Under the pieces are notes generated by a model that was not told where the DNA came from, did not search any database, and saw only the letters and a list, made by a program, of their open reading frames with translations. Positions 16,125 through 33,810 of a stretch of 38,822 nucleotides of DNA are shown here, one piece after another. Source of the stretch: Candidatus Levyibacteriota bacterium (lineage in GTDB: Bacteria > Patescibacteriota > Microgenomatia > Levybacterales > UBA12049). A program made the position numbers and the translations under genes. Location: NCBI GenBank assembly GCA_016182425.1, contig JACPGP010000024.1, positions 1 through 38,822 on the forward strand, written 5' to 3'. Numbering within the stretch: the stretch's first letter is position 1; each line of letters starts with the position of its first letter.

Positions 16125-16248
16125 AGAAAGATTATAGAGGAAAAAAACGATAAACGTAATCCGTGACAAGGGGAATGATCATTATAAATCTTTTTGAGAA
16201 TAGATGACAGGGATTTATTTTAATAGTATAGAGATATAGGATGGAGTA

Positions 16249-17768: not shown

Positions 17769-17814
17769 ATTTTGGTCATGTACCAAAATGTTCTTTAACA
17801 ACCTGCAATATATC
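17769..17814 (+). promoter_or_regulatory. Unit 1 leader: boxB-like hairpin, boxA-like TGTTCTTTAACAA, left stem arm
   Basis: ATTTTGGT/ACCAAAAT hairpin; motif is one mismatch from E. coli rrn boxA TGCTCTTTAACAA; arm AACCTGCAATATATC at 17800-17814. Confidence 0.7.
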
Positions 17815-18048
17815 AAAGAAAAATCCCAAATTCTAAATCCTAAATTCTAAAAAAATAGGAGGACTTTTGAGTGGAATTTAACTAGCCTATAAAAACATGC
17901 CAGTATTTATGGCCTGATTAAATTTCACTCGAAAGAGGAGCGGAATTTAAAAAATCTAAGAAGAGGTGACTATTGAAGGAAATTTTTGAAAGAAGGCTTT
18001 TGTCCAATGTTGCATCCAAATCATATTTAAGGAAAGGTATACAAAACC

Positions 18049-18399
18049 ATGAAACTTAATGTTTCCCAAGTTGGCGCTTTGACTGTTGCACCTATAATGT
18101 CCTGGATTCCATGCCCAGACAATGCAACTTGTCGCGGCCACAAAATCCACGATGGATCTGCCCGTGGATGGCATTGTAGTAACTCGGACTGTCGGTATGG
18201 CGTGGCGGAAAATAGCCTTGTTTCCATCATGATGCCAACATCAATTACGCATGTGCAGATAGTTTCCGTTGCCCCGGCTTTTGCACCAATGATGATGGCG
18301 GCTCGGAAGTGCCCTGATTGTGGTGCTTCAGTTTACAAAGATCCTCACGGCAAGGGAAAAGCCCTACGCTGTAAAAAGTGTGGCTGGAGGAGTAACTAA
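18049..18399 (+). CDS. Small double zinc-finger/ribbon protein
   Basis: CPDNATCRGH...CSNSDC and CPDC...CKKC; purine-rich SD-like AAGGAAAGG upstream. Confidence 0.7.
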   Translation: MKLNVSQVGALTVAPIMSWIPCPDNATCRGHKIHDGSARGWHCSNSDCRYGVAENSLVSIMMPTSITHVQIVSVAPAFAPMMMAARKCPDCGASVYKDPHGKGKALRCKKCGWRSN

Positions 18400-18400
18400 C

Positions 18401-18613
18401 ATGGCAAAGATAACAGCTGCTCAATTGAAAGTTATCAAAAAGGGTAAGCCCGATCAGTGCCCCGTAGAACCGTGTCCCGAGGACTGTCCTGGACTTAAGT
18501 TGTGTAAGCAGGCACATGCTCCAGAAGAAACCATTGACCTTGCGGCTGTAACTGAAGCTGCGAGAAAGAATTCGCTGGGGTCATTGCAGTTTGATGATTC
18601 GGTGCATGATTAG
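18401..18613 (+). CDS. 70-aa Cys-rich hypothetical protein
   Basis: GGAGGAG SD; ATG 1 nt after the previous stop; CPVEPCPEDCPGLKLC. Confidence 0.65.
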   Translation: MAKITAAQLKVIKKGKPDQCPVEPCPEDCPGLKLCKQAHAPEETIDLAAVTEAARKNSLGSLQFDDSVHD

Positions 18614-18798
18614 TTCCACACCCTGGAGAGATTTGGGCTAGCTTTATTTCGAAAGCTTGAATCCCGCCTTGGAGGTGGATCTGTTGTGAAGATGGGGGCT
18701 GGGGACTTTCCCTAGCCTCCTACCAACAGAGCCGCCTTCGCCGAGCTTCGGCGAGCCACAGCAAAACAAAACAAGATTCCGGTAGTCCGGACCAAAAC

Positions 18799-18813
18799 GA
18801 TATATTGCAGGTT
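18799..18813. repeat. Unit 1 right stem arm
   Basis: GATATATTGCAGGTT is the exact reverse complement of 17800-17814. Confidence 0.9.
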
Positions 18814-18903
18814 TTAAAAATAATTGATAATTAATAGTTAAGAGTGAATAGTTAAATATTCATTAGGTTGCAAAAGTTTTTTAATAATTTATATTATTAG
18901 AAA

Positions 18904-19155
18904 ATGACAGGAAGAAAAGTTCAAAAAGAAGCAGAAGCAGTACAACCAGGGTTTGATGTGATGTTGGTGCAAGAGAAACTACCTGAACCAGAAAATGAAT
19001 TGTTGAAGTTGATGGCTCGTGAGGGTGTGAAAGGCAAGAAGAGAGCGACCCAAACAACTGTGGCACAAAGAGTGGCTATGAATGCATTTAAACCAAGAAT
19101 TGTAATCCATACTGGGACACCAGTACTTGGAGGAGCGCAGGTGGATAAGGATTAA
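18904..19155 (+). CDS. Hypothetical protein
   Basis: 83-aa ORF, convergent with the AbiEii-like gene. Confidence 0.55.
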   Translation: MTGRKVQKEAEAVQPGFDVMLVQEKLPEPENELLKLMAREGVKGKKRATQTTVAQRVAMNAFKPRIVIHTGTPVLGGAQVDKD

Positions 19156-19787
19156 GATAAGTAGGTTTTTCCCAGCCGAAGTGATTCGGAAATAAGAAAC
19201 TTTTTGACTTCATCCCAAGAGATATCAGCCAGCATTTCGGGCATAGCGTCAGCATCTGCGTCTTCAAAATAGGTCATGCTCTTGATAAGGGTATATTTGT
19301 TTTCTTCCAGAACGTGGTACTTTTTGTTGTATAGCTCAAACATTTCCTCGATTGATATATTTTTTTGGTGACAAATTGTATATAGATCGATGAAATCTTT
19401 TTTGGTATTTCGATCGGATATAGCAACTAATTTCATAGCAATGATGTCGTCGATACTAGCAATTTTGATGCCCTGATAATCGTCAGTTGGATTCAATAGG
19501 GGATATTCGTATCGGAAATAACTAAATTTAACATTATTAAATTGGCCGATTAGTGTAGTTCCGGCAGCGGTATCAATATCAAACTTACCAGTAGTTTTTA
19601 GTGAATTGGCTAAAATAATAGGATCAAATTTTAAAGGTGAAAAAAAGTCAAAGTCGATTGAAATACGGTGACCTAAACGTAAGGCGAGTGAGGTACCACC
19701 AGCAAGATAGGCATTATTTAACAATTCACCTTGGCCTAAAATGTCCAGAGCTGTTTTCGCATTTGGCGATAAGACTGTTTCAAACAT
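19152..19787 (-). CDS. AbiEii/AbiGii-like nucleotidyltransferase toxin
   Basis: 'YLAGGTSLAL.LGHRISIDFDFF', 'MKLVAI.DR..KKDFIDLY' motifs. Start MFETV. Confidence 0.9.
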   Translation of the reverse strand: MFETVLSPNAKTALDILGQGELLNNAYLAGGTSLALRLGHRISIDFDFFSPLKFDPIILANSLKTTGKFDIDTAAGTTLIGQFNNVKFSYFRYEYPLLNPTDDYQGIKIASIDDIIAMKLVAISDRNTKKDFIDLYTICHQKNISIEEMFELYNKKYHVLEENKYTLIKSMTYFEDADADAMPEMLADISWDEVKKFLISESLRLGKTYLS

Positions 19788-20032
19788 GCTACCTCCGTAA
19801 GGGGAATATTTAAATAATTTGCCCAAAAAGTACCGGATTTGGCAGAGAAATCCCGTCGCGATTTTAGTGTTTCGACAACTTTATTTATTGAATAATTATG
19901 TAATACCCAGTTAGCAGCGACTAGGTCTCCTTTGTCTAAAAGTCGATTAATTACGTACTGATAATCGCCCTCGAAATCAATTTTATTGATATCGACATCC
20001 CAGAAATATTTGGATAAATTAGCTTTATTCAT
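19736..20032 (-). CDS. DUF6922-like putative antitoxin partner
   Basis: 'YFWDVD...YVINRLLDKGD...W' pattern, upstream of and overlapping the AbiEii-like gene. Confidence 0.75.
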   Translation of the reverse strand: MNKANLSKYFWDVDINKIDFEGDYQYVINRLLDKGDLVAANWVLHNYSINKVVETLKSRRDFSAKSGTFWANYLNIPLTEVACLKQSYRQMRKQLWTF

Positions 20033-20300
20033 TACTCCACATTATACCAATTTTGAGAAGTTATTTGCCTAGTAAAATGGTATAATAAATGATATGAGAT
20101 AAGCGGTGGTATGGTCAAAAAACAAGGATAAACTCGATAAAAATGATGATAAGGTCTATGTTTGGAAATTTGGAAGAAATAAAAGCACTTAAAAAAGAGT
20201 ATGGTGAAGAAGAGGTGAGAAGGGTTGCTATTTGTTGACAAATGCAATTTGGTGCAAGATTGTATCTTGACAGAATACAAAATGATAGTAAAATGATACT

Positions 20301-21452
20301 ATGGACATGCTGAAACGGGCAATAGAAGATAGTATAAATACGTATTTATCAGGCGAAGATACGAAGATATTGTTTGTATGGGGTCCGCGACGTTCAGGAA
20401 AGACGACATTGATTGATAAGTTGTCTAGAGCACTGAAGGTAACAAAATATAACTTTGACTTGGCTTCAGATAGGGACAAGTTTATTCCTCGTCGAGAAAT
20501 ATTGGAAAGAATTGTAGCTGATAATAGGGTTATCTTAATAGATGAAGTTCAAAGCTATCCTGAAGCCACAGTAATATTAAAAATACTTCATGATGAGTTT
20601 AAGATAAAAATCATTGCCACTGGTAGCTCGGAACTGAGACAAAAGTCAGGCAAAGAGTTTGACACTTTGGCTGGTAGATTTAGTGAGATTTACTGCTTGC
20701 CATTATCTGTAACCGAAATTGTAGCCAACGAAAAACCAAAGATGTCTGACGAGTTGGGTTTTTACAAACAAACAATGATAAATTCCCAAATATGGGGTGT
20801 TTATCCGGAAATATTTACCAAAGCTAATTTGGCGGAAAATGAAAGAATTGATCTCTTGCAAAAAGTTTTGGATACGTATGTTCTTAAAGATGTAGTAGAC
20901 ATATATGAATTGAAGAACCAAAAGCTAGCTAAAGATATTTTGACCAAGATTGCCTTACAGCTTGGACAGGAGGTTTCAATCCGAGAAATCGCTGATTCTT
21001 TGGGAGCATATCCGGCGACTGTATCAAACTATATTGAAATATTTATCAAAAATTATATTTTGATAGAGTTACCATCGTTTAAAACAAATATCAGAAAAGC
21101 TGTGTCGGAAAACCGTAAGCTATATTTTTATGATTTGGGGATTAGAAACATTTTGGTTAAAGATTTTCGGGAAATGGAACTACGACCTGACAAGGGTGGA
21201 GTGTTTGAAAACTTTATTATTTCCGAACTGGAAAAGTTGCGGAGACTAAAAAATGTTAAAGTGAATTTTTATTTTTATCGGGAATATGGAGGTAAAGAAA
21301 TTGATCTGATTATTGAGGATTATAAAAAAAATTATGTGACAGTGGAGATAAAAACGAATAAAGGTAATGCAAATAAGATCTTTCCAATAGAAAGCAAATT
21401 GGAAATGATAACGAGTCAAAATTATTTTGAGAAATTGAACAGTATCTTATAA
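20301..21452 (+). CDS. AAA_14 ATPase with DUF4143 (paralog 1)
   Basis: GPRRSGKT, IDEVQ, ATGSS, LAGR, KLYFYDLGIRN, FENF and EIDLI..EIK motifs. Confidence 0.9.
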   Translation: MDMLKRAIEDSINTYLSGEDTKILFVWGPRRSGKTTLIDKLSRALKVTKYNFDLASDRDKFIPRREILERIVADNRVILIDEVQSYPEATVILKILHDEFKIKIIATGSSELRQKSGKEFDTLAGRFSEIYCLPLSVTEIVANEKPKMSDELGFYKQTMINSQIWGVYPEIFTKANLAENERIDLLQKVLDTYVLKDVVDIYELKNQKLAKDILTKIALQLGQEVSIREIADSLGAYPATVSNYIEIFIKNYILIELPSFKTNIRKAVSENRKLYFYDLGIRNILVKDFREMELRPDKGGVFENFIISELEKLRRLKNVKVNFYFYREYGGKEIDLIIEDYKKNYVTVEIKTNKGNANKIFPIESKLEMITSQNYFEKLNSIL

Positions 21453-21465
21453 TTAAGTTCTATTG

Positions 21466-21494
21466 TTGACAAATGTGTATCTGCGGTGTATAAA
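21466..21494 (+). promoter_or_regulatory. sigma70-like promoter for unit 2
   Basis: TTGACA-17 nt-TATAAA; a second TATAAT at 21561. Confidence 0.55.
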
Positions 21495-21636
21495 AGCTCA
21501 TGTTGCAAAATGTGGCAAAGCGCTACAAAGTAGTACATCACAGAGTCCTAAAATTTATCCTATAATGGGAAAATTTTGAGGACTTTTTTGGTTTTTGAGG
21601 TTGGCGTATACCTTGAACATTGCGTTTGAGGAAAAA

Positions 21637-21674
21637 GCTTGCCGAGAAAGCACGTTAACAATCTGAATACGAAA
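21637..21674 (+). promoter_or_regulatory. Unit 2 leader: weak hairpin, boxA-like GCACGTTAACAA, left stem arm
   Basis: GCTT...AAGC hairpin; boxA-like motif 21650-21661; arm ATCTGAATACGAAA at 21661-21674. Confidence 0.6.
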
Positions 21675-21873
21675 ATAAGGGCTTCTAAAATAATGGTTTG
21701 AAAAGAGTTATTTTTGAGGGGCCGAAAGATATCTACCACTGTTTTTTGGTGATAAGTATCGACGGTTTCCCTCAAGAAAATACTAGTTTGGGAAATCGAC
21801 TGGCTGCATAGTCGGGTAACATACCCGTTTTTTACTTTTTCTGTCGTGCCGAATCAGATCAAATGGAGGTCCT

Positions 21874-22758
21874 ATGAGTAGGCGAATGTTGTGGTTGAAA
21901 GCGTTAGGGGTCCTTTACCTCCTAATGTCTGTGTTTGGCAGTGTATTTCCAGTAAAGGCGCAAGGCGAAGGGTTTTTGTGGCCGTATGTTGGGGTGTCTG
22001 GCAGGGATTGGTATCCGACCCAAGGTTGCCATAGTGATGGCTGGGGAGGTGCTGTTGGTGGCATTCCAAGTACCTGCGCAGTCGATTTTACTCGCTACTC
22101 AGGTGGTGAGAAAGTCAATTGTGGTGAACCAGCCATGGCTCCAGTTTCAGGAGACTTTACGAATTTTGGAGCTGACGCTGGAGGAAGTACTACGGCGGTG
22201 ATTAAAGGCCAAGCCTATTGGGTGTTTTTTGTGCACGGAGATTTTGTCCCTAGCGGATATTTGAAGCAGGGCGATATTTTCGGCTATGAAAATACTCATG
22301 GTAACAGCTCTGCTTGTCACTGGCACATGTCTGTGTTTGATGTAAATCAGAGTAGCTGGGTAAATCCAAATACTTTGCAGACAGTTGGCGTGCCAGCGGG
22401 GGCAGGACAAGTTGTCAACCTCGATGTTGCCAAAGTCCAGTTCCAGATGCAAACATGGACAGTGGTTGGCCCGGATTACCTGGATGGACTTATTCCGCCC
22501 ACGGTGACGTCCGTAACGGCTCCTGATCCAAATAAGGTCCAGATTGATGTCGAAAATCCAATTGATGGCTCTGAGTCGTCTTGGACATTTGACCAGTCTA
22601 AACTTCCCTATCAAGTTGATACGGGTAAAGTTGAACAATTAGTTGAGGAGAAGAAAGACAATTTCCTCACCTGGATTGTGGTCGCTATTGTTGCGTATAT
22701 GTTGTTCAAAAAAAGTCCGAGTCGTCACCGTGAAGATGATGATGAAGAAGAGGAGTAA
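21874..22758 (+). CDS. Secreted M23-like metallopeptidase with C-terminal TM and acidic tail
   Basis: Signal peptide (VKA-Q); H...AVDF, FVHG and 'GNSSACHWH' (HxH) motifs; GGAGG SD. Confidence 0.7.
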   Translation: MSRRMLWLKALGVLYLLMSVFGSVFPVKAQGEGFLWPYVGVSGRDWYPTQGCHSDGWGGAVGGIPSTCAVDFTRYSGGEKVNCGEPAMAPVSGDFTNFGADAGGSTTAVIKGQAYWVFFVHGDFVPSGYLKQGDIFGYENTHGNSSACHWHMSVFDVNQSSWVNPNTLQTVGVPAGAGQVVNLDVAKVQFQMQTWTVVGPDYLDGLIPPTVTSVTAPDPNKVQIDVENPIDGSESSWTFDQSKLPYQVDTGKVEQLVEEKKDNFLTWIVVAIVAYMLFKKSPSRHREDDDEEEE

Positions 22759-22763
22759 AAAAA

Positions 22764-24362
22764 ATGAACGCGTATTTTGATAATGTGTCAAAGTATTTCC
22801 TTCCTAAGGTCGTTAGCTCTTTCCCTGTCGGATGGGAAGACTGGATGGAAAATAATCCCCAAAGTGAACTGGCGATTGAGGTGATGTACCTTGGTGCAGC
22901 CCTGAGTCCAAGTGACCAACACAGATTTGAACGCGAGTTGAAAATGGCTATGGGTGGCAAAGCACAAGCTGTGCCTCCGCCCCCGCCTCAACAAGCACAA
23001 GCTGCACCCGCACAAGCTGTGCCTCCGCCCCCGCCTCAACAAGCACAAGCTGCACCCGCACAAGCTGTGCCTCCGCCCCCGCCTCAACAGGTAAAACCGG
23101 CGGAAGCTGAAAAAGGTCCTGGGTTCATGGCGGCAGTTCGAGAAAAGGCTGGGAACGCTTTGGGTGGTGTGAAAGATTTCGCGTCTCGCCCTATTTTTGG
23201 TGGGATCCCGTTGTGGATCGTCGTCGTTGGCGCTTTGCTGCTCTTTAACTCGGGAATCCTGAATGGGCTTGGTGATTTGCTTCCCAAAGGATCGAGTGGC
23301 GGTACTTCAACTGGTTTGACTGGCAGTCCGAGCGTGTGGATTAAGACGGCGGCTGGAGTGACGGTTCCGATCAATAAGATGCCATTTCCCAAGATTCCGT
23401 TTGCCGATATGGAAATGCGCAAGCTGATTGCGGCTCTATTGCTGTTGGTCAACCCGATTTTGGTTGCTTTCGACAATGCCGCAGCACGCCCAAACCAGGA
23501 ACCAAATCACAAAAGCAACATTGGTTTCGTGCTGTACTTTGTCGCAGCGATGTTGTGGGGTTATTGGGCGGTGATCATTGCTGGTTTTTCCTTGTTTTTG
23601 ACCTTAAGGAGTCGGGAGGGCAATACATCTTCGATTGGAAACCAGTTTTTCCTGCTGATTTTAGGTTTGTGGATTTGGTTCTCCAAGTTAGCCCCGATTG
23701 TAAATGGCTACCTGGACGGACTGCACAACCCGATGATTAGCTGGCTGCCCACATTGCTGCGCTACTTGTTTAATGGCGAGAACCTCAGACCTCTGGCGGC
23801 GATTGCCTTGGTTGGTTTCCTCATCTATTCAGTGCTGAGCGATATGTATGACAGCTCGACACTGATTACTTTGATGGGCTTCCAGCTGGCATGGTTCCTT
23901 GGAACTGGCGTGTTTCTCTTCTGGGAAAAAATGCCAATGCTTTACCAGATGCCGTTCTTCTATTTCCAGTTTGCGCTGGTAGTGATTGCGATTTTTATCG
24001 AACAGAAACAGGTTGGTTTGTTGAACTTGCCGAAGGGTATCCTGATTTTGTTTGGGGTGATGTACTTTGTCTCCCTTGGAATCCGCGATTATTTTGACAT
24101 TGATCCAAACGGGACTACTGTCTGGCGCTACATGACTCAGCCGGTTATCTTCCTGTACATGATCGTCCTCTGGCTGTCCTATGCCTTTGGCAAAGCTGTC
24201 TCAGGAGGGTCGAAAGTGTTCGCTGGGTTGTACCAGACGCTGGGAAGCTGGTTTGGTCAGTTGGTGCCGATTGCTGGACTTCAAGTACCGTCAGACGGAT
24301 TGATTACCCTCAACCTGGTTTTGGCTGGCGTACTGGTGTTTACTCAAGTTATTTTATATTGA
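22764..24362 (+). CDS. Polytopic membrane protein with Pro/Gln/Ala repeat
   Basis: About 10 or more hydrophobic segments; GAGGAG SD. Confidence 0.85.
   Translation: MNAYFDNVSKYFLPKVVSSFPVGWEDWMENNPQSELAIEVMYLGAALSPSDQHRFERELKMAMGGKAQAVPPPPPQQAQAAPAQAVPPPPPQQAQAAPAQAVPPPPPQQVKPAEAEKGPGFMAAVREKAGNALGGVKDFASRPIFGGIPLWIVVVGALLLFNSGILNGLGDLLPKGSSGGTSTGLTGSPSVWIKTAAGVTVPINKMPFPKIPFADMEMRKLIAALLLLVNPILVAFDNAAARPNQEPNHKSNIGFVLYFVAAMLWGYWAVIIAGFSLFLTLRSREGNTSSIGNQFFLLILGLWIWFSKLAPIVNGYLDGLHNPMISWLPTLLRYLFNGENLRPLAAIALVGFLIYSVLSDMYDSSTLITLMGFQLAWFLGTGVFLFWEKMPMLYQMPFFYFQFALVVIAIFIEQKQVGLLNLPKGILILFGVMYFVSLGIRDYFDIDPNGTTVWRYMTQPVIFLYMIVLWLSYAFGKAVSGGSKVFAGLYQTLGSWFGQLVPIAGLQVPSDGLITLNLVLAGVLVFTQVILY
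22962..23089 (+). repeat. 48-bp coding tandem repeat, ~2.7 copies (AQAVPPPPPQQAQAAP)
   Basis: Identical units start at 22962, 23010 and 23058. Confidence 0.95.
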
Positions 24363-24379
24363 CCTAAAGGAGGGTCGGT

Positions 24380-25063
24380 ATGTCGAAGAAAAAGTCTACC
24401 GACCCTACGGTTGGTATCGGAACGATTGCACTGGTGGTGATTGTGCTGGGTCTGTACTCGGGAAATCTGAAAGTTTCCGTGCCGCAGGCTTCTACTCAAT
24501 TGCCACCAACAAACTCCGTAGCCACAAGCAGTGTTCTTGAGGCTGCCAACGGAGCTGACGTCCCCAACCCACTTTCTGAACGGGTTGACGCAAAACAACT
24601 ACCCCCTTCACATCAAGGTGGTGAAGTTATATACAATGGCGGTGTACTTAGGGGTTTCCCTGACGCTGGTGTTGAAACTTCAGTAATTCCTGAAAGCGCC
24701 AAGAAAGTATCAGCAATTTTTAGCTGGTACTGGCCAAATCTGGGAGGAACAAACTGCAGTAGTTTCCGCAGTGATCTTCCTGATCGGGCCTTTAGTTTTC
24801 CTGATGCCGACCACTCAAGTGGTTGGTGTTGGTCGAGAATGAGCTCTGGGGAGAATTGGGAATACTACGTTGGTAGAGCAGTCGCTTGCCCCCAAGAATG
24901 GCCGTTTGGAACAAAGGTGTATGCCTTTGGACGTGAATGGCTGTGCTTGGATCATGGCGGAGCGATTGTGACTGAAAATGGTGAGTCTTGGATAGATTTT
25001 TTGACCCCAAGTCCACCGATGAGCTATCGAACCCATTTTGATGTTTGGGTGCTTTACCCTTAG
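24380..25063 (+). CDS. Membrane-anchored 3D-domain-like (MltA/RlpA-type barrel) protein
   Basis: 'AVACP..WPFGTKVY...CLDHGGAI...WIDF' resembles the 3D consensus 'VAVDP..IPLGT.V...DTGGAI...IDI'; AAGGAGG SD. Confidence 0.65.
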   Translation: MSKKKSTDPTVGIGTIALVVIVLGLYSGNLKVSVPQASTQLPPTNSVATSSVLEAANGADVPNPLSERVDAKQLPPSHQGGEVIYNGGVLRGFPDAGVETSVIPESAKKVSAIFSWYWPNLGGTNCSSFRSDLPDRAFSFPDADHSSGWCWSRMSSGENWEYYVGRAVACPQEWPFGTKVYAFGREWLCLDHGGAIVTENGESWIDFLTPSPPMSYRTHFDVWVLYP

Positions 25064-25076
25064 AAAGAGGATTACC

Positions 25077-27266
25077 ATGGCTACAATTCCATATCGAGAA
25101 ACAATAATTGAATATTTCAACAAGTTGAACGTGTCGTATCAAATTTCGTCAACGGCGAAGGTTGATGTCGATTTTCCAGCTGCGTTCGTGGGGGCAATAA
25201 TTGCGCAGAAGGGAACCGTGATCTGGTTGGAAAATGAACATGCTTGGGCGGTGCAATTTGGCAGTGAACCTGCGAAGTTGTTAACTCAGCCCAAAGCACA
25301 ATCGGCGCCGGTGCCTGCAAAAGCAAAAGCAGTTGCCGCGGCTGTCGTGAAACCAGTTCGAAAGGTTTCGAAAAAGTCGTCTTTTGGAATTCCCCAGTTT
25401 GGATTGTTGGCGGCGGTGCTGTTTTTTGCCCTCTCTGGCGGAAAGCTGAACCTTCCTGGAGCATCAACACCTGACGATCCTAATGCTTACCAATCCATGG
25501 CTACAGCCAGTGCCACCCCGGAACTCGTGGGTGATCCTGATGCATTTTGCAGTCAGGAACTGGGCAAGACCGTAACTGGTGTGAAGGTTTTTGAAGTTAC
25601 TGAGAGCGGTTTGACTGGCACAACGAAGGATTTATACCCTCAGGCTGAGATGGCGACATATTTTTATGCCAAAGAAGTTGAGCGAGGGATGCCATTTCTG
25701 ACCGTAAGTTGGTTGTTTCAGAGCGCCGATGCGAACGCAGAATTTGAAAAAGCGATTGCTCTGGATACTGCCAAGATGGACCCCAACGTTGACTGCGTAG
25801 ATCAGAGTTGCAGTAAGTTGTGGACGTCCTCGATTAACCTCGCCAATGATTACAGAATTGAGACGTTTTATAACGAGAACCGTGATCTGACTGACCCGCT
25901 CTATTACAAAAACGTTCCCGCGGAAATGTTTACTGCTTTCCGCGAATGGATCGTAGAAGTGGTCGCGGCCGGAAAGAATGGTACATCGTATCCTCGGTGT
26001 ATTGAAATTCCGGCGGTTAAGGATATGGCTGAGGTTTCCAAAGAAGCAAAAGACTGGCTATTAAACAATCAGCCTCAGCGCGGGAACGCACAACTGCCCT
26101 CATCAGGATCAAAAGGTCCTCGACCGACCGATCAGCCGCTGATCATTACCGCAACCCCGACCTTGGGGTATGTTGGGTCAAATGCTCCGGCATTTGATAA
26201 GTACGCGGCGGTAGTTGGTGCAACAGATGCCCAAACGGCATTTACAGCCGATCCTGACCAGCAGTGCTATGTCAACCTGACTGTGAACTGGCCCGACTTT
26301 ACCATGACCTCAAGTTTGAATGAGGTGATTCGCATTTTGGGCCCGAGCTCGTGGACTTTTCGTTCCATAGGGGACGGGACATTTCAGGCTCGGAGTTATG
26401 AGACTGATGCGAACGGCTATGCCGCTTGTGCCAAGGTGTTGAACCTTGAGACGGAATACTCGGCAGGCACATGGAGGATTGGCAACACTGGAGTGGTGGC
26501 GACTTTGCATTGGGAGAACTACGGTCTGCCCGACGAAATAAAAGTAGGTAGTGCGTTTATTTTCCCAGTCTACTCGGACCAAGTTGTCGCCGAGAGCGAG
26601 AGTTACGACATCATCCCGACAAGTACTCCGTCGGTCAGTTCAGCTTCGATCTACGATCTGTATGATGTTATGATCAGCAAAGGCTGGACAGAACTGGTAT
26701 CAACGGGATGCCCATTCGAACCTATCAATGGGTCGGTGACTACAAGCAGTGCGTTTACCGTTGATTTCGGTTACAACGATGTCCTCGCCGGGCAAAAGTA
26801 CTCGAAGGATGGGTGTGACCTTTTTGGGGGGTTGCATTTTACGACTTACGACCCGGGGCAAGGGGATTCGCAAGTATTATATGGCGGTAAGTTATATGTC
26901 TACCCTTATACCAAAGTCCAGTACCAACCCTCTCCCACTCCTGGTGGACCAACCTATCCACCGGACGGATCGCAGATTAGTCTCGCAGATCTATTAAAAT
27001 ACGAGACTGGGTATGGTGAAAAGGCAAACTCTGTGGGTTGTAAGAATGGGTCGATCCCTGGTTGGCCGAATCATGTTCCTGTCAAGACCAATGTTTATAA
27101 CTATTTGGTGGATTTCAGCGCAATTGCAGGACAAACCAATGGGTTGTGTGTTTATGACCCCGTAAAGATGACTACTTCCTCAGTCCTGTACTGGAGCATT
27201 TACGAGTACCAGGGTTACGGAAGTATAATCCAGTATGGTGGGTATTGGTTTGCTCCATTCAAATAA
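25077..27266 (+). CDS. Large single-pass membrane/extracytoplasmic hypothetical protein
   Basis: AAGAGG SD before ATG 25077; TM near residue 110; TATP linkers; paired Cys. Confidence 0.85.
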   Translation: MATIPYRETIIEYFNKLNVSYQISSTAKVDVDFPAAFVGAIIAQKGTVIWLENEHAWAVQFGSEPAKLLTQPKAQSAPVPAKAKAVAAAVVKPVRKVSKKSSFGIPQFGLLAAVLFFALSGGKLNLPGASTPDDPNAYQSMATASATPELVGDPDAFCSQELGKTVTGVKVFEVTESGLTGTTKDLYPQAEMATYFYAKEVERGMPFLTVSWLFQSADANAEFEKAIALDTAKMDPNVDCVDQSCSKLWTSSINLANDYRIETFYNENRDLTDPLYYKNVPAEMFTAFREWIVEVVAAGKNGTSYPRCIEIPAVKDMAEVSKEAKDWLLNNQPQRGNAQLPSSGSKGPRPTDQPLIITATPTLGYVGSNAPAFDKYAAVVGATDAQTAFTADPDQQCYVNLTVNWPDFTMTSSLNEVIRILGPSSWTFRSIGDGTFQARSYETDANGYAACAKVLNLETEYSAGTWRIGNTGVVATLHWENYGLPDEIKVGSAFIFPVYSDQVVAESESYDIIPTSTPSVSSASIYDLYDVMISKGWTELVSTGCPFEPINGSVTTSSAFTVDFGYNDVLAGQKYSKDGCDLFGGLHFTTYDPGQGDSQVLYGGKLYVYPYTKVQYQPSPTPGGPTYPPDGSQISLADLLKYETGYGEKANSVGCKNGSIPGWPNHVPVKTNVYNYLVDFSAIAGQTNGLCVYDPVKMTTSSVLYWSIYEYQGYGSIIQYGGYWFAPFK

Positions 27267-27337
27267 ATTTTAGGTTGGTCGCAGGGCTCATAGCTTCATC
27301 GTAGCCACCCTGCTACCAACAAGGAAGGAAGTAAGGC

Positions 27338-28618
27338 ATGAAAAGTTCAACTTTGAAAATGATCATGGTGTTAATCGTCGGTTGGTATTTAGTGACCAAT
27401 GGAGTAATTTCAAAAAACGATAACGCGATCGATCCAACTTCTACCCCAGCCGAGGCTGGTTCAAATGCGGCGGCGGTCCAAACTGCTGTTGAAAATGTGG
27501 CACAAATGACGCCTACCCCAGGATCTGCTGGTGCAGGCCAGATGGAAACAGCCGTCCCGACCCAAACCATCATCGTCGACCTTGGTGATGCCAATAAGAT
27601 GATAGAACTTATGCAAGGGAAAATGACCCGAGAAATGGTCAACTGGCTAATAACGGCACGATTGTCTACGGGTGGTGGAGCTCATGCTTGCTTCGTCGCT
27701 TGGTATGATGAGCCGTTTGATGATATCACTGTACCTGCTGGTCACCCTGGTATTCCTATGTGGCAGGTCATTGATGGTGGAAACGTCATCACAGCCGAAA
27801 AAATGGGTCTTGGCGGATGCAAGACGACGATAAAACTGGGCGACTTGCTTTCTGGTATCCCGCCGAGTTTTTTGCAAGACCCCGCCAACTATCAATTAAA
27901 CGAGGTTCCTTATACCTGGACAACTGGTACAACCACCATTACCGAAAGTCGGGTGGAAGTCACCGTGACAGTGCCCTATGCTTTTGGTGGACTGGTAGTT
28001 CAGCCTGGTAACGAGGTAACTCTCCAGACAGTATTGCCAAACGAAGCGGCTGCCTCAGTTCAGGACTTCTGGAAATATGTACTATCCCTTGGGGGAGATG
28101 TTTCCAAGGTCTGGGTTAAGTACGGGGCACTCGACAATTCCGCTGACAATCTGGCAATATTGGATGTCATTGCTCCGATTACGGACTGGCGCACAGGGGC
28201 TCGTTCGACCGATCACCTTGACGCACTGCGCGAACTGACCATGCAATCGGTATTGCCAGGGAGTCCTGCTTATGAAACAATCCGCAAGATCGTTTGCGAA
28301 AGTGCGGACGAGGCAGGGTTCAAAGATATTAGTGGTTTTGATCAAAGCGGCGCCCCAGTTACACTGGATAAGTGCACCGTTAAGGTGAACTTAGTTCCGA
28401 TCAACCCGAATGAACCCAATACCTGGTACCAACTGGATTCGTTGCCTCAGACCTGGTCCACGACTCCTGAGCAAATTGCCCAGCTCCGACCCGTAATTAT
28501 TCCGGCAGATTTTGAAGCTTATAACTTCGACAATGCGTACGTTTTATATGCGCCGGAAATAAACCAATCTAACTGGTGGAGTCAAGTACCTGAAGCTTTG
28601 CGTCAGTACGCTCCGTAA
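27338..28618 (+). CDS. Secreted/membrane-anchored hypothetical protein
   Basis: N-terminal hydrophobic helix, PT-rich linker; AAGGAAGG upstream. Confidence 0.85.
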   Translation: MKSSTLKMIMVLIVGWYLVTNGVISKNDNAIDPTSTPAEAGSNAAAVQTAVENVAQMTPTPGSAGAGQMETAVPTQTIIVDLGDANKMIELMQGKMTREMVNWLITARLSTGGGAHACFVAWYDEPFDDITVPAGHPGIPMWQVIDGGNVITAEKMGLGGCKTTIKLGDLLSGIPPSFLQDPANYQLNEVPYTWTTGTTTITESRVEVTVTVPYAFGGLVVQPGNEVTLQTVLPNEAAASVQDFWKYVLSLGGDVSKVWVKYGALDNSADNLAILDVIAPITDWRTGARSTDHLDALRELTMQSVLPGSPAYETIRKIVCESADEAGFKDISGFDQSGAPVTLDKCTVKVNLVPINPNEPNTWYQLDSLPQTWSTTPEQIAQLRPVIIPADFEAYNFDNAYVLYAPEINQSNWWSQVPEALRQYAP

Positions 28619-28622
28619 AAAA

Positions 28623-28636
28623 TTTCGTATTCAGAT
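28623..28636. repeat. Unit 2 right stem arm
   Basis: TTTCGTATTCAGAT is the exact reverse complement of 21661-21674 and starts 4 nt after the last stop codon. Confidence 0.9.
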
Positions 28637-28700
28637 ACACTCTCGCTGTATTCAGTCAACAATTTTTGTTTTGCTGGGTACAGCTTGGGGGCAATTCTTG

Positions 28701-28759
28701 CCTGTTGTGGTTCGTGTCTGGCTTCCCCTTTGGGAAGCCAGGCAAACGAACGCAACAGG
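28701..28759 (+). other. Long imperfect hairpin downstream of unit 2
   Basis: CCTGTTG..GTTCG.TGTCTGGCTTCCC / GGGAAGCCAGGCA..CGAAC.CAACAGG; no U-tract on +. Confidence 0.75.
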
Positions 28760-29057
28760 TGAGAAATAAAAAATTTATTGATCAAATATATTTTAATAAT
28801 GTTTTTGATGAGTAAATTCTGAAGATGAAGTAAGGTGGAATGTGGTATGCACAACACTTATCTTAGGATTGTAAATTTATTGATGGTGGTCTGAAGAATT
28901 GAAAGCTAATAGTAAACCAGTATTGTATGCAACTGATCTTGATGCAGTAAGGAGTATTGAGGTGGCACCGTTGGTGCCTAGAGTGGTAGGAAGAGTTGGA
29001 ATGCAGATAGGAGTAAAATGTCAGGACAAGCTGTGAGGGAATTTGGAGAAGTGAGAA

Positions 29058-29096
29058 ATCCTTCGACCCACCAGGGTAGACAGGCAAGCTCAGGAC
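29058..29096. repeat. Nested REP-like palindromic elements
   Basis: ATCCTTCGAC [CCACCAGGGTAGACAGGC] AAGCTCAGGAC. Confidence 0.6.
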
Positions 29097-29146
29097 GAGT
29101 GAGGCCGATGCCTAAGATTCGGGGGTTGATTGGGGAGTAGGAAAGG

Positions 29147-30307
29147 TTAAATTAGGTCAATCCAGTTTTTATTGACGATATTGGCGGAGATAGGGCAGGT
29201 TTTTGAATTGGAAATGAGATAACTTTGATTGATTTGTTTACCAAAGATTTTTTGAGCTTTGACTAAGGATGAAGCGTGAATGGGGCGAATTGTGGCAGTG
29301 GATTTTATTTCGACCAGATCAACTTGTCCGTTGTTTTCCAGAATGAGGTCGACTTCAAGTCCATCTCGGGTGCGGAGGAAATACATTGATGGTTTTTGGC
29401 CATGATGATAGTACTGTTTCCAGTAATCAATGATAATAAAAGTCTCAAAAAGTGAACCAAAATAAGGACTGTTGGTAAGTCCGGCGCTAGAGGTAATTCC
29501 CAAAAGGTGACTGACTAAACCAGTGTCGGTAAAATAAATCTTGGGACTTTTGATTACTCTTTTGCCAATATTTTGGAAATAGGGATAAAGTAAAAAGATC
29601 TGATAACTAGCTTCGAGAAGAGAAAGCCAACGTTTAGCAGTAGGCACGGAAACACCGATTTCTCGAGCAATTGAACTTAGGTCTAAGATTTGACCAGTAC
29701 GAACAGCAACTGATTTTAAGAAAATTTGAAATAAATTTAAATCACCTACTTGACTCAGGTTTCTAATGTCTCTTTCAAGAAAAGTTCTGATATATGAAGA
29801 TTGCCACAGATTGTGATCAATTTTATGATTGTTGGCAACTTCAGGATAATTACCCCGTAAAATAATGCCAGACAAATCGATAGATTTTTTATTGGTACCG
29901 ATGAGTTGTTCTGATAGTGAAAAGGGGAGTAAAGAGAGAATGGCAGCGCGTCCGGCAAGGGATTGGTTGACATGGTGCATTAGAGAAAAATTTTGAGAGC
30001 CGGTGAGAATCCAGCGTCCAGGCTGACGGTGGTCATCAATATCGGTTTTGATATAGGAAAGTAACTCGGGAACATACTGAATTTCGTCGATAATGGCTGG
30101 TTTCTTGATGTTGTTTAAAAAAGTGTGGGGGTCACTTTTTGCTAAAAGTTGGATGTCAGGGTTTTCGAGATTATGATAATCGTATTTTTTGCTAAAAGTA
30201 TTTTTAAGAAGGGTGGTTTTGCCTGATTGACGGGGACCAGTCAAAATTACAGCGGGAAATGTTTTGATTATTTTTTTGATGATATTGGTAATATCTCGGG
30301 GTTTCAT
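29147..30307 (-). CDS. AAA_14 ATPase with DUF4143 (paralog 2)
   Basis: GPRQSGKT, IDEIQ, LTGSQ, SLAGR, PKIYFTDTG and EVDLI..EIK motifs. Confidence 0.92.
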   Translation of the reverse strand: MKPRDITNIIKKIIKTFPAVILTGPRQSGKTTLLKNTFSKKYDYHNLENPDIQLLAKSDPHTFLNNIKKPAIIDEIQYVPELLSYIKTDIDDHRQPGRWILTGSQNFSLMHHVNQSLAGRAAILSLLPFSLSEQLIGTNKKSIDLSGIILRGNYPEVANNHKIDHNLWQSSYIRTFLERDIRNLSQVGDLNLFQIFLKSVAVRTGQILDLSSIAREIGVSVPTAKRWLSLLEASYQIFLLYPYFQNIGKRVIKSPKIYFTDTGLVSHLLGITSSAGLTNSPYFGSLFETFIIIDYWKQYYHHGQKPSMYFLRTRDGLEVDLILENNGQVDLVEIKSTATIRPIHASSLVKAQKIFGKQINQSYLISNSKTCPISANIVNKNWIDLI

Positions 30308-30486
30308 CAGAGTATTATATATCCTGCAAGTTTAATATTCAATGTTAAAATGGTGGGGTTGAATTGGGGATTGGTTGAGGGTAAGGATTGGAGCTTGACT
30401 ACAATAAACCGGAAATCAGGAGCAATAACTTTGGCTAATAAGTTAACAAAGGAGAATTGATGGTGTAGTAGGTTTATCCTATAATC

Positions 30487-30515
30487 TTGACAAAAGGGAT
30501 GGTTTTTGATAGGAT
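30487..30515 (+). promoter_or_regulatory. sigma70-like promoter for unit 3
   Basis: TTGACA-17 nt-TAGGAT. Confidence 0.7.
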
Positions 30516-30572
30516 TATTAAAATAATCAAAGTACGCATCTGCTGTGTATGTATTGATTGTTTTTGGCAACG

Positions 30573-30620
30573 CCCGATGTGAATTGTTCGGGAAGTACAT
30601 TAACAGTCAAAAAGAGTTGT
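30573..30620 (+). promoter_or_regulatory. Unit 3 leader: hairpin, boxA-like GTACATTAACA, left stem arm
   Basis: CCCGA...TCGGG hairpin; boxA-like motif 30595-30605; arm CAGTCAAAAAGAGTTGT at 30604-30620. Confidence 0.65.
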
Positions 30621-30727
30621 AGAGGTTGGGTCAAACCTGCCCTGTAATATGTACAGGGTAAATTTGACTCAACCTCAAAATTTTGAGGATTTTAAACCTG
30701 TCTGATGGACATAAAAAGGAGAATGCC

Positions 30728-31369
30728 ATGATTGAAATACCGGTTTTCGGAACAAATTGTAAAGTACTGAATCATATGTATACATATTTAGTGGTATCGG
30801 TGGTTTTGGCAATTGAGTTGTTCGTTGAAAGTGTGGGATTTAGTTTGAAGCTGGTTGAATTTGTGATCCTGCTGATTTCAGCAGTTGCGCTTATTTACAG
30901 TGAGAGGAGCCCGATTCATAAAGGCGTTAAGGTCATGTGGATTGCGATTGTTTGGTTGAGCTTGTATTTCGGTTATTACATGAGTGGGATTGTAGTAATG
31001 ACTTTTTATGTCTCATTGGGAATTGGTGAAATCATCAACGTGTCACGAGATTACAAGAAGTACTCGAAGATGGCCATTAAAGACTGGGTAATGCTGGTAA
31101 TTGCAGTATCTGCTGTGTTGGTAAAGACCTTGCTTGATAGTTGGTCTATGTACCAAGGTGGAGAATTTATTGCTGCAATACTTATTATTGCGATGGCCTG
31201 GGTCACCATAGTTGGGAAGGATGTTTTTAATCGAAACATTCAAATAACACTGCTGATTCTGTCATTGCCGTTTGTGGGTTCACCGCTTTTTCTATTTGCG
31301 GTCATTGTCACTGTTGCGGTCATCAATGCATCGATACGTTTTGCTCACCATGTTGGTGATATCCAATAA
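30728..31369 (+). CDS. Polytopic membrane hypothetical protein
   Basis: AAAGGAG SD before ATG 30728; about 7-8 hydrophobic segments. Confidence 0.8.
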   Translation: MIEIPVFGTNCKVLNHMYTYLVVSVVLAIELFVESVGFSLKLVEFVILLISAVALIYSERSPIHKGVKVMWIAIVWLSLYFGYYMSGIVVMTFYVSLGIGEIINVSRDYKKYSKMAIKDWVMLVIAVSAVLVKTLLDSWSMYQGGEFIAAILIIAMAWVTIVGKDVFNRNIQITLLILSLPFVGSPLFLFAVIVTVAVINASIRFAHHVGDIQ

Positions 31370-31430
31370 CTTTTCATGGAAAGGTACGGGTGAGGACTTT
31401 GTCCTCACCCGCCCATGAAACCACAACACA

Positions 31431-31447
31431 ACAACTCTTTTTGACTG
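31431..31447. repeat. Unit 3 right stem arm
   Basis: ACAACTCTTTTTGACTG is the exact reverse complement of 30604-30620. Confidence 0.92.
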
Positions 31448-32803: not shown

Positions 32804-32835
32804 GATTGCCACGTCCCTGCGCTCCTCGCAATGAC
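32804..32835. repeat. REP/RPE-like palindrome in the rpsB leader
   Basis: GATTGCCACGTCCCTGCGCTCCTCGCAATGAC; tail TCGCAATGACGT recurs at 36641. Confidence 0.7.
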
Positions 32836-32859
32836 GTGTATTATAAAAAGGATAAATAT

Positions 32860-33810
32860 ATGGCAGACACAAAAAAAAATAAAGGAAGTCAAGCCGCCTC
32901 CGTTAAAACTACGGCGAGCCGCGGAAAAACCGTTAATCGGACTGGTAAGAAGTTGATCGAGAAAGCATTAGTGGTCAAAGCTAAAACAGTAGCCAAGGTC
33001 AATGCTGAAAATATCAAAAAACATAACGAAAAACTGATTAAAGACAAAAAGGAACTGGAGAGAAAAAAAATAGAGGGTGAAACCGCCTACGTGGTTACTT
33101 CGGCGGTCAAACAAGATAAAAAATACGACCTAACTATTGATCTAAAAGACTTGTTGGAAGCGGGTTGCCATCTAGGACACAAAGTCAGCAAGACCCATCC
33201 CAAAGCCAAGGTAAACATCTATATGGCCAAAGACGGAATTCAGATAGTCGATCTTCTCAAAACTAAAACAGCTTTAGAAAAAGCCTGTAATTATATTTAC
33301 AACGCCAGACGAAATGGTAAACAAATAGTGCTCTTGGGCACCAAAAGACAAGCAAGGGAAGTAGTTAAGAGAGTCGCGCTTGATGCTGGAGTGGGGTATA
33401 TAACTGACCGTTGGTTGGGTGGAACCATCAGTAACTGGGAACAAATCAAGAAAAACATCAAAAAATACAATGATATTAAAGATGGTCTTTCGAAAAATAA
33501 ATTCACCGATAAATCTAAAAAAGAACTAGGTGATCTGGCCAAAGAGCAAATCAGACTAGAAAAAATGATTGGCGGTCTGGCAACTACCGAAAAAATGTTT
33601 GACATTTTGATGGTGGTTGATGCTGGCTTTGAAAAAACAGCGTTGAAAGAATGCAAGATGAAAAATGTGAAGACAGTAGCCATTACTGATACTGATTCTG
33701 ACCCACGAAAAGTTGATTTTGCAATTCCGGCTAATGACGACTCGGTCAAATCAATCAATATCATTATTGAAGAAATCGGAAAAGCTATCAAAGCTGCTGG
33801 TACGAAATAG
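32860..33810 (+). CDS. rpsB: 30S ribosomal protein S2 with long basic N-terminal extension
   Basis: LLEAGCHLGH, LLGTKRQA, RWLGGTISNW and DTDSDP...IPANDD motifs. Confidence 0.96.
   Translation: MADTKKNKGSQAASVKTTASRGKTVNRTGKKLIEKALVVKAKTVAKVNAENIKKHNEKLIKDKKELERKKIEGETAYVVTSAVKQDKKYDLTIDLKDLLEAGCHLGHKVSKTHPKAKVNIYMAKDGIQIVDLLKTKTALEKACNYIYNARRNGKQIVLLGTKRQAREVVKRVALDAGVGYITDRWLGGTISNWEQIKKNIKKYNDIKDGLSKNKFTDKSKKELGDLAKEQIRLEKMIGGLATTEKMFDILMVVDAGFEKTALKECKMKNVKTVAITDTDSDPRKVDFAIPANDDSVKSINIIIEEIGKAIKAAGTK

Follow-up and report, generated by a model that had tools for sequence, protein, structure and literature searches.

The window analysed here, the 38,822 nucleotides (nt) of one contig from a Candidatus Levyibacteriota genome, belongs to the class Microgenomatia within the Candidate Phyla Radiation (CPR). 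Between a traG/VirD4-like ATPase gene and rpsB it holds three units closed by long-range inverted repeats, which enclose two genes (Unit 1, U1a and U1b), five genes (Unit 2, g1-g5) and one gene (Unit 3, U3). All eight genes are preceded by Shine-Dalgarno (SD) sites, in the genome of a very small groundwater bacterium which appears to start most promoter-proximal genes as leaderless messengers and to use SD sites rarely. The best explanation, to which we give a probability of roughly 0.6, is that Unit 2 would be an exchanged, fast-diverging envelope module, which lies on a long leader behind an upstream open reading frame (uORF) and hence is SD-led. The SD use and the composition of the three units taken together probably come from exchange between relatives and from long leaders. 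Positions are collected in Table 1.

The window is contig C35 of an assembly of 797 kb in 38 contigs which is 88% complete. Background genes were called with our own crude picker of open reading frames (ORFs), based on codon bias, which gave 765 genes and 90% coding. An SD site was scored as the energy of its duplex (dG) with the 16S tail, the threshold being dG <= -8 kcal/mol, and 731 genes outside the units were scored in the same way as the unit genes. A sequence-only reading made before this analysis had claimed a purine-rich SD-like site for all eight enclosed genes, and every motif it listed is present, with duplexes from -8.1 (U1a) to -13.1 kcal/mol (g3). The spacing is 4-8 nt in seven of the eight genes and long, 11 nt, in U1a. 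Among the 731 outside genes the threshold is reached by 12.3% at the first start, by 20.1% if the best start among the nearby alternatives counts, and by 14.6-22.8% of internal operon genes; at random positions it is reached by 8.3%. The sequence-only reading had singled out the comparison with ordinary internal operon genes as the one that could overturn it, and the frequencies do not match (8/8 against 14.6-22.8%). The chance of eight in eight is P ~3e-6 to 7e-6 with the genes treated as independent. Counting matches to the SD consensus of at least 5 letters, 83 of 737 starts (11%) have one, compared to 6% at shifted control positions. Inside the Unit 2 island the chance rate is 18% of all + strand positions and 16% of the positions before 131 internal ATGs, and five SD sites in five genes at the island rate correspond to P ~2e-4 for Unit 2 alone. 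It should be noted that in U1b, g4 and U3 the ORF has an earlier start codon than the ATG which the SD precedes; the ORF of g4 opens with a TTG at 25038. Around their starts the unit genes have only slightly more structure than native genes, a difference too weak to build on.

The leaderless background is seen genome-wide as a peak of TATAAT-like hexamers at -12, i.e. with 6 nt between the box and the ATG. A -10 box at this spacing is found at 130 of 737 genes (18%, versus 4% in shifted controls) and at 79 of the 293 genes that are first in their operon (27%, range 27-32%). In the flanks of the units about ten genes have a TATAAT-like hexamer ending 5-8 nt before the ATG, which bears out the earlier impression that the neighbours look leaderless. 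They include traG (likely start at the ATG at 16124, TATAAT 6 nt before it), a phd-like gene, brnT, x83 (an ORF of 83 codons), DUF6922, three DUF4143 genes and x77, an ORF of 77 codons adjoining frr.

The ribosome of the cell itself is equipped for SD pairing. Its 16S 3' end, at the start of contig C17, reads GGATCACCTCCTTTCT and is thus the canonical anti-SD whose presence the sequence-only reading had proposed to check; this truncated 16S end was missed by the Rfam-based search and recovered by a motif search. The same tail is found in all six relatives with a complete 16S end. In a ribosomal-protein stretch of 27 genes on contig C9, 12 reach dG <= -8, and 11 of these 12 code for ribosomal proteins according to Pfam (L4, L23, L2, S3, L16, L14, L6, S5, L15, S11 and S4). 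The canonical anti-SD together with these 12 SD genes indicates that the cell's own ribosome uses SD sites on its ribosomal-protein operon. It had been speculated that the unit transcripts are adapted to the ribosome of another cell, such as a host. Beyond the contrast with the neighbouring genes nothing speaks for such tuning, which is unsupported because the SD sites are complementary to the cell's own canonical tail and the native ribosomal-protein genes carry the same signal; in addition the unit products have signal or membrane segments such as proteins of the cell's own envelope typically carry. We consider the host-ribosome idea hardly conceivable. In PMC9297842 the anti-SD motif is described as detected less often in a subgroup of Parcubacteria. 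Our literature search found no paper on leaderless versus SD use in CPR.

The composition of the units sets them apart as well. The genome means are 0.391 for GC (standard deviation 0.039) and 0.334 for GC at third codon positions, GC3 (standard deviation 0.061). The genes of Unit 2 have GC 0.476-0.501 and GC3 0.42-0.55, those of Unit 1 have GC 0.48-0.49, and the GC3 z-scores of the unit genes run from +1.5 to +3.7. That Units 1 and 2 are GC-richer had been judged by eye, and the calculation agrees (0.48-0.50 versus the genome mean of 0.39, GC3 z up to +3.7). Genes g1-g5 are five of the 13 GC-richest genes in the assembly, and 21801-28700 is its longest GC-rich stretch. The gene of Unit 3 is only mildly raised (GC 0.40, GC3 0.43, third-position GC skew 0.35). 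Across the window the + DNA strand has a strong excess of G over C independent of gene direction: of the 14 other + strand genes of the contig, 12 have a third-position GC skew between +0.35 and +0.61, and of its 9 - strand genes, 8 have one between -0.38 and -0.63. In g1-g5 this skew is only 0.00-0.18. A strand disparity of G and C is described for Microgenomates genomes by Kadnikov et al. (2020; PMC7143001). The raised GC and GC3 and the absent strand skew suggest that this DNA is not equilibrated with the chromosome that carries it, and thereby point to exchange or recombination within the lineage. Two assemblies from the source study are continuous over the Unit 2 island with the same depth there as in the flanks, therefore the island is not an assembly chimera; both may be source samples and so are not independent of the window.

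Another way to explain the combination of SD sites and GC-rich third positions is that the units are native and highly expressed, both features being the result of selection for strong translation. The ribosomal-protein operon, which is SD-rich (12/27) and among the GC-richer stretches, would fit this, and so would the genes of the top GC3 decile, of which 20% have an SD compared to 11% of the rest. However, dG and GC3 are uncorrelated genome-wide (Spearman -0.02), the GC3 of the island (up to 0.55) goes beyond the 0.25-0.49 of ribosomal-protein genes, and the explanation accounts neither for the absent skew nor for the absence of the module from close relatives. We find it unlikely.

The region at the head of Unit 2 suggests how an SD-led module could be placed in a leaderless organism. 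Transcription would start from a sigma-70-type promoter, of which conserved copies head the clusters of L013, L017 and L031, making four loci with the window. The leaderless start behind this promoter would be taken by the uORF of about 20 codons, for which L013 and L031 have counterparts of 19 and 21 codons, opening with ATGTTG(A/C)(C/A)AAA. The uORF would be followed by a leader of ~370 nt in which the conserved CAC-N-TTAACA motif, the left arm of the stem and a hairpin resembling a terminator are found. The start of g1 lies 374 nt beyond the ATG of the uORF, behind both the arm and the hairpin. The gaps in front of g2-g5 are 5, 17, 13 and 71 nt with no stop-start overlap. Because g1-g5 are too far from the 5' end for leaderless initiation and have no overlap for stop-start coupling, they would need SD sites. 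Internal recruitment of a 30S subunit normally goes by SD pairing, and the five genes would in this manner recruit that of the cell itself. The position alone does not force SD use, because ordinary internal genes of this genome mostly lack it: non-overlapping ones have an SD at dG <= -8 in 12-17% of cases, and their upstream regions are AT-rich. The history of the module or its higher GC must add to the effect of position. What the analysis shows is the anti-SD, the excess of SD sites over a leaderless background, the unusual composition, a variable interval, a promoter and uORF conserved in relatives, and arms that covary; where transcription starts, that the uORF is used, in which direction and when transfer took place, and what the stems do, we infer.

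The counterparts of the uORF lie at ~9640-9700 in L013 and at ~7410-7345 on the minus strand in L031. The peptides are basic, begin with ML(Q/T)(N/K) and may be regulatory leader peptides.

The exchange part of the explanation comes from relatives of the window. With the traG-like ATPase 23 related loci (labels L0xx) were found, with titles such as Candidatus Shapirobacteria and Microgenomates group. The ATPase is 63-89% identical across them and topA adjoins its gene in all loci which reach far enough; traG is a conserved core gene bounding a variable interval. Its start lies 152-1773 nt from rpsB in six of the 23 loci (L022, L023, L025, L026, L027 and L032), and in the remaining loci the two are separated by 5 to >10 kb with a differing gene content. 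Because the content differs among the 23 loci, we regard the traG-rpsB interval as a turnover hotspot. The closest relative, L014 (mreB 97%, penicillin-binding protein (PBP) 92.5% and topA 90% identical), has none of g1-g5 in its interval of 10 kb; it has a homologue of U1a (E 2e-6), which is likewise GC-rich (0.54). When the window and its relatives were pooled as 24 loci, an SD at dG <= -8 was found in 17 of 56 variable-interval genes versus 16 of 192 core genes (Fisher 8e-5); this comparison used ORFs of at least 100 amino acids (aa) and first starts only, and since the genomes are related the P value is overstated. In the same pool a -10 box precedes 16% of variable-interval genes versus 37% of core genes, and GC3 is 0.416 versus 0.354.

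In two further genomes a cluster repeats the pattern of Unit 2, being both GC-rich and SD-led. L013 carries the title 'Gammaproteobacteria', and its core proteins are 60-74% identical to those of the window in the same order, from which we take it to be a relative despite the title. At the same place it has a cluster of four genes with GC 0.52-0.56 versus 0.41-0.47 in the neighbours and with reduced skew. The cluster includes a g2 homologue (31% identity) and has four strong SD sites with GGAGG cores, -10.3 to -15.7 kcal/mol; the neighbours have -10 boxes or A-rich upstream regions. The second, G192, is a genome from another family of the class, in which a cluster of six genes has GC 0.45-0.49 compared to 0.30-0.39 in the flanks and several of the genes have SD sites. 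Its last gene is a homologue of g5 (E 1.8e-14), and the predicted topologies follow the order of g1-g5: signal with C-terminal anchor, polytopic, N-terminal helix, helix near residue 100, N-terminal helix. As far as predicted topology goes, the envelope module is one whose architecture is conserved, whose sequence is extremely diverged, and which is GC-rich relative to each genome holding it. Gene order and membrane topology would be kept while the sequences diverge fast and are exchanged among Microgenomatia.

L013 is not alone in its title. L020, L021, L023, L026, L027, L029 and L036 are, like it, titled 'uncultured Gammaproteobacteria bacterium' yet have a syntenic locus of Microgenomatia type. 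With core proteins 60-75% identical to those of the window, the titles of these metagenome-assembled genome records look wrong.

The absence of the module from the nearest relative, its patchy occurrence and its lack of strand skew speak for recent arrival or replacement. The promoter, the leaderless uORF and the leader motif are conserved in relatives, and on this ground the gene pool would be the same bacterial class and not a distant donor. Homologous replacement via the conserved flanks may be one option for the mechanism of exchange. Speculatively, GC would also go up if a recombination hotspot were subject to GC-biased gene conversion. The foreign origin which the sequence-only reading had offered as one of two explanations is in part retained: the variable interval, the rarity of the genes and the absent skew agree with it, and the distant source does not, since the donor pool appears to be the organism's own class. 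In its strict form this explanation says that the units were recently imported from an SD-using, GC-richer organism outside CPR and kept the translation signals of the donor. Atypical GC, GC3 and skew would be expected from such an import, as would the lack of a Pfam family for seven of the eight genes and the very small number of homologues. The taxonomy of the matches speaks against it: homologues with genomic context are found only in contigs of Microgenomatia type, the syntenic L013 and G192 of the same class, and the module is headed by a lineage-typical promoter, a leaderless uORF and the TTAACA leader motif. Import from outside CPR is accordingly improbable.

Several observations weigh against an exchanged module as the explanation. 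The units have no integrase, transposase, flanking tRNA or direct repeats: no integrase or transposase was found among the window ORFs scanned with Pfam, no recombinase of PF00589 or PF00239 in the 88%-complete genome, and the units have neither a tRNA nor direct repeats at their flanks by which they could be recognised as a classical island. Since the promoter, uORF and leader motif are conserved in the lineage, the locus could also be an old resident one that selection diversifies fast. Unit 3 is compositionally near native, and one explanation may not fit all three units. Gene calls and starts come from a crude caller, and three of the eight starts were picked with the SD in view. GC-rich sequence by itself lifts chance SD-like matches to the 18% given above. 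Finally, ordinary non-overlapping internal genes are mostly without SD, and 'internal, therefore SD' is no rule in this genome.

Unit 2 is best read, from its predicted proteins, as a cell-envelope module of five genes: an M23-like peptidase, a protein of 10 helices and three single-pass or secreted proteins. Pfam gave no family for seven of the eight unit genes, and U1a had only sub-threshold zinc-ribbon matches. The g1 family is small and has invariant His and Asp motifs; one member carries PF01551 (M23). The g1 protein itself is below the Pfam threshold, with a weak match to the M23 domain of phi29 gp13 (E 0.044). Large proteins in the intervals of relatives carry M23, in L014 together with an SLT transglycosylase domain. 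Together with the adjacent VirD4-class ATPase, which matches TrwB in the PDB (E 9e-4), Unit 2 resembles the envelope part of what could be a secretion or transfer machine of Gram-positive type.

The proteins are rare. Among 1.84 billion cluster representatives g2 has 11 homologues. For g1 and g5 eight and four homologues were found; g4 found only itself among 8000 scored candidates, and the search for loci related to it gave one match of 33 residues, which is of no use. No g2 was found in the 40 relatives searched, and the g5 family profile has a match in one of 400 other genomes of the class. The alignment of the g2 family (A1) is too diverse for pattern scans. Alignment A2 yielded no relative from genome_contigs, viral_contigs or metagenome_contigs; metagenome_contigs gave no match for P0003, nor did genome_contigs for P0019, which belongs to the g1 family; the g5 and g1 family alignments gave nothing in viral_contigs. 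A search of PHROGs with the eight unit genes gave nothing convincing (best E 0.0014 for g1 and 0.0093 for g3), and a PDB sequence search with g3 gave nothing. The structural model of g2 has a predicted local distance difference test score (pLDDT) of 73 overall and 80-95 over residues 210-532, and Foldseek found no match to it at E <= 0.001; the best VIA Z is 5.7, with no clear fold match. The g5 model is poor (pLDDT 41.6). Within g2, at 22962-23105, three tandem copies of 48 nt code for a Pro/Gln/Ala-rich repeat; independent Logan contigs break exactly at this repeat, and its copy number may vary.

The stems which close the units were claimed in the sequence-only reading and were recovered as long-range inverted repeats with 15, 14 and 17 nt perfect. 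In all three units the left arm lies within 2 nt of TTAACA, usually inside CAC-N-TTAACA, and the same anchoring is found for the inverted repeat that pairs best between the flanks in the counterparts of Unit 2 in L013 (GCAGACAAAGA) and G192 (TTGAATACAACA) and in the counterpart of Unit 1 in L014 (CAATCTGCATCA). The position of the Unit 2 arm is homologous in L013 and G192, and the arm sequences have changed. In a table of 6 x 6 duplexes the cognate partner is the best of its row in all six units; cognate duplexes range from -14.9 to -33.2 kcal/mol (Unit 1, -23.2), with a mean of -21.9 versus -13.6 for non-cognate ones. Judged by this co-variation, in which the sequences differ and each right arm has changed to match, the arms of the six units are real. 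The arms in L013, L014 and G192 were found by looking for them and their statistics are post hoc; the shared position of the anchor was not selected for. Genome-wide, 67 inverted repeats of at least 14 nt were observed versus 30-43 in shuffled genomes. TTAACA with an arm of 14 nt has three matches, all of them the window units, versus 0.54 expected from permuted hexamers (P 0.018, post hoc), and with an arm of 11 nt there is no excess over permuted hexamers (10 matches; 1.6% versus 1.9%). The D9 repeat AAAATTTTGAGGACTTT, which is common to the three units, was considered and rejected as a part of the system, its position relative to the arms being inconsistent.

What the stems do can be thought of in two ways. 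The first is that they act in the RNA: the 5' and 3' arms pair, RNase III cuts the stem or the ends are protected, and the resulting leadered messenger needs SD sites. This agrees with the cognate arms forming the strongest duplex in every unit, and with the left arm being always at most 2 nt from TTAACA at a homologous position in the leader while its sequence varies. An RNase III gene is present in the genome, no tyrosine or serine recombinase was found there, and the genes of all six units are co-oriented with the TTAACA motif. On the other hand, processing is not needed for SD use with a leader of already ~370 nt, pairing across 7 kb of translated RNA would be unusual, perfect inverted repeats of 14 nt at such a range are common by chance (the 30-43 of the shuffles), and the post hoc way in which the relatives' arms were found applies here too. 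RNA processing as the cause of the SD use is a possibility that we hold only tentatively. The sequence-only reading had put it as processed RNAs which cannot use leaderless starts; the genes do lie behind long leaders, and processing is dispensable as an explanation.

The second way is that the repeats are recombination sites at which the units are flipped relative to an outside promoter, i.e. phase variation. Whole units lie between the repeats while the promoter stands beyond the left arm, repeated flipping would erase skew, and the third-position skew of Unit 2 is near zero; recombination would also keep the arms identical. But no PF00589 or PF00239 recombinase was found in the 88%-complete genome, all six units are found in one orientation, and neither the raised GC nor the SD sites would be explained. 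Contigs from four DNA runs contain no strand-changing joints and no supported joint which skips or flips a unit, although contigs hide rare forms; the few joints seen connect DUF4143 paralogues or other organisms, their sides being 20-31 letters long with a likeness of 90%. Inversion is thus very improbable. Because RNase III is encoded, no tyrosine or serine recombinase is found and the six units have the same orientation, a role of the stem at the RNA level seems more likely than DNA inversion, the candidates being end protection, processing and ribosome recycling.

From these observations one may formulate, with much reserve, a model of 'closed' messenger units in Microgenomatia, in which the arm at CAC-N-TTAACA pairs with a sequence just behind the last stop codon and so brackets SD-led, GC-rich sets of genes of 0.8-7 kb. 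If true, exchangeable envelope genes would be expressed under a second regime, one that depends on leaders and SD sites, within an organism that is leaderless in other respects, and this regime would cover stability, ribosome recycling or controlled processing.

Non-coding stretches lie beside two of the stems. At 18614-18798, in Unit 1, 185 nt are GC-rich and rich in hairpins, have no Rfam match and could be a structured 3' untranslated region or a small RNA. After Unit 2 about 500 nt (28640-29146) have no convincing ORF and no Rfam match and include a long hairpin (~28697-28760) and a purine-rich tract. The leaders and trailers of the units gave no Rfam match; the only real match in the window is a tRNA.

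Table 1. Features of the 38,822-nt window
Feature	Position	Strand	Description
Start of window			Housekeeping genes mreB, PBP2-type transpeptidase, topA (Pfam)
traG/VirD4-like ATPase gene	13875..16169	-	Pfam TrwB_AAD_bind, DUF87, TraG-D_C
Interval between traG and rpsB	~16.6 kb		Mixed content: toxin-antitoxin pairs, AbiEii/DUF6922 pair, three DUF4143 ATPase genes, eight unit genes
Unit 1 TTAACA motif and left arm	17795..17814	+	Arm 17794-17814; inverted repeat with 18799-18819; 15 nt perfect, 21 nt at 90%
U1a	18049..18399	+	116 aa, Cys-rich, putative zinc-ribbon protein; SD-like AAGGAAAGG 11 nt before ATG; GC 0.49
U1b	18401..18613	+	70 aa; SD GGAGGAG 8 nt before start; GC 0.48
Unit 1 right arm	18799..18819	+	185 nt after U1b stop
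Unit 2 promoter	21466..21494	+	TTGACA, 17-nt spacer, (TG)TATAAA
Leaderless uORF (putative)	21500..21565	+	21 codons, MLQNVAKRYKVVHHRVLKFIL; ATG 5 nt after -10 box
Unit 2 TTAACA motif and left arm	21655..21674	+	Arm 21661-21674, 14 nt, ATCTGAATACGAAA
Terminator-like hairpin and T run	21813..21836	+	In leader, 38 nt before g1; possible attenuator
g1	21874..22758	+	294 aa, putative M23-like peptidase, signal peptide and C-terminal anchor; SD GGAGG 4 nt
g2	22764..24362	+	532 aa, ~10 membrane helices; SD GAGGAG 8 nt
g3	24380..25063	+	227 aa, N-terminal membrane helix; SD AAGGAGG 6 nt
g4	25077..27266	+	729 aa, one membrane helix near residue 100; SD AAGAGG 6 nt
g5	27338..28618	+	426 aa, N-terminal membrane helix; SD AAGGAAGGAAG 6 nt
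Unit 2 right arm	28623..28636	+	TTTCGTATTCAGAT, 14 nt perfect, 4 nt after g5 stop
Unit 3 TTAACA motif and left arm	30600..30631	+	Arm 30604-30631; 17 nt perfect, 28 nt at 82%
U3	30728..31369	+	213 aa, six membrane helices; SD AAAGGAG 6 nt; GC 0.40, GC3 0.43
Unit 3 right arm	31420..31447	+	After GC-rich hairpin ~31383-31405
rpsB	32806..33810	+	Pfam Ribosomal_S2; synteny; other conserved boundary of interval
End of window			rpsB, tsf, frr (Pfam)

Elsewhere in the assembly some features recall those of the window. On contig C11 (12476-14379) a GC-rich insert of 1.9 kb (GC 0.48) with perfect terminal inverted repeats of 39 nt interrupts a sugar-nucleotide operon and holds a gene of 159 aa with GC 0.53 and a GGAGG SD; inverted repeats, high GC and an SD coincide in it for a second time, and it has the look of a small mobile element. 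On contig C5 (1-4000) two GC-rich genes (GC 0.57 and 0.52) lie beside toxin-antitoxin-like genes and among repeated inverted copies, 13-15 nt long, of TGAAATCTTACACT. A palindromic element, TTCCACCTTAGAGGTGGAA, is repeated on several contigs, including C29 (7221-8030) and C34 (6640-16476). A second TraG-like ATPase gene, 42% identical to the copy in the window, is found at a contig end (C32, 1-2175).

CPR make up a large share of bacterial diversity, and their translation start is almost undescribed. In the genome analysed here two modes of initiation would be divided among the classes of genes: ordinary promoter-proximal genes would start leaderless, and SD sites would serve the ribosomal-protein operon and the fast-evolving, exchangeable envelope module. 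This is of relevance for gene calling in CPR (start sites and small uORFs), for the spotting of exchanged DNA in genomes of extreme skew, and for the expression of CPR genes in model hosts. The covarying 5' and 3' arms with their conserved anchor motif are a testable candidate for a new messenger architecture. The contrast in SD use and composition is a variant of what is known from mixed modes of initiation and from compositional islands; novelty may lie in the closing of SD-led units by TTAACA-anchored stems.

When the window is compared to known systems, its background recalls the strand disparity of Microgenomates as given in PMC7143001: the window has the same excess of G over C on one strand whatever the direction of the genes, and the Unit 2 island is an exception to it which would mark non-equilibrated DNA. 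The units are like compositional genomic islands in their raised GC and GC3, the lost local skew, the absence from the closest relative and the patchy occurrence, and also in having neighbours of defence or mobile type (AbiEii, toxin-antitoxin pairs and DUF4143 ATPases). They differ from such islands in being without integrase, tRNA target and direct repeats, and in that the module carries regulatory DNA typical of the lineage and is found again, in a highly diverged form, at the same site of a relative. With secretion and conjugation modules of the Gram-positive type IV class Unit 2 shares the presence of an ATPase of VirB4/VirD4 class next to it; the candidates for a cell-wall hydrolase and for a VirB6-like polytopic channel protein would be g1 and g2.

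Long-range stems which flank rRNA genes and phage early messengers are processing stems of RNase III. As in these, complementary flanks hundreds to thousands of nt apart bracket a unit here, and RNase III is encoded; unlike them, the present units code for proteins over up to 7 kb and have a left arm anchored to TTAACA.

Mixed leaderless and SD initiation has been described for Actinobacteria and Deinococcus-Thermus, and the leaderless transcriptome of Mycobacterium tuberculosis is said to be an example. The window genome resembles these systems in having a -10 box a few nt before the ATG of promoter-proximal genes, in keeping SD sites further down the transcript and in retaining the anti-SD. 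It differs from them in that its SD sites are near background genome-wide (12% versus 8% at random positions) and are concentrated in the ribosomal-protein operon and in the units of the variable interval.

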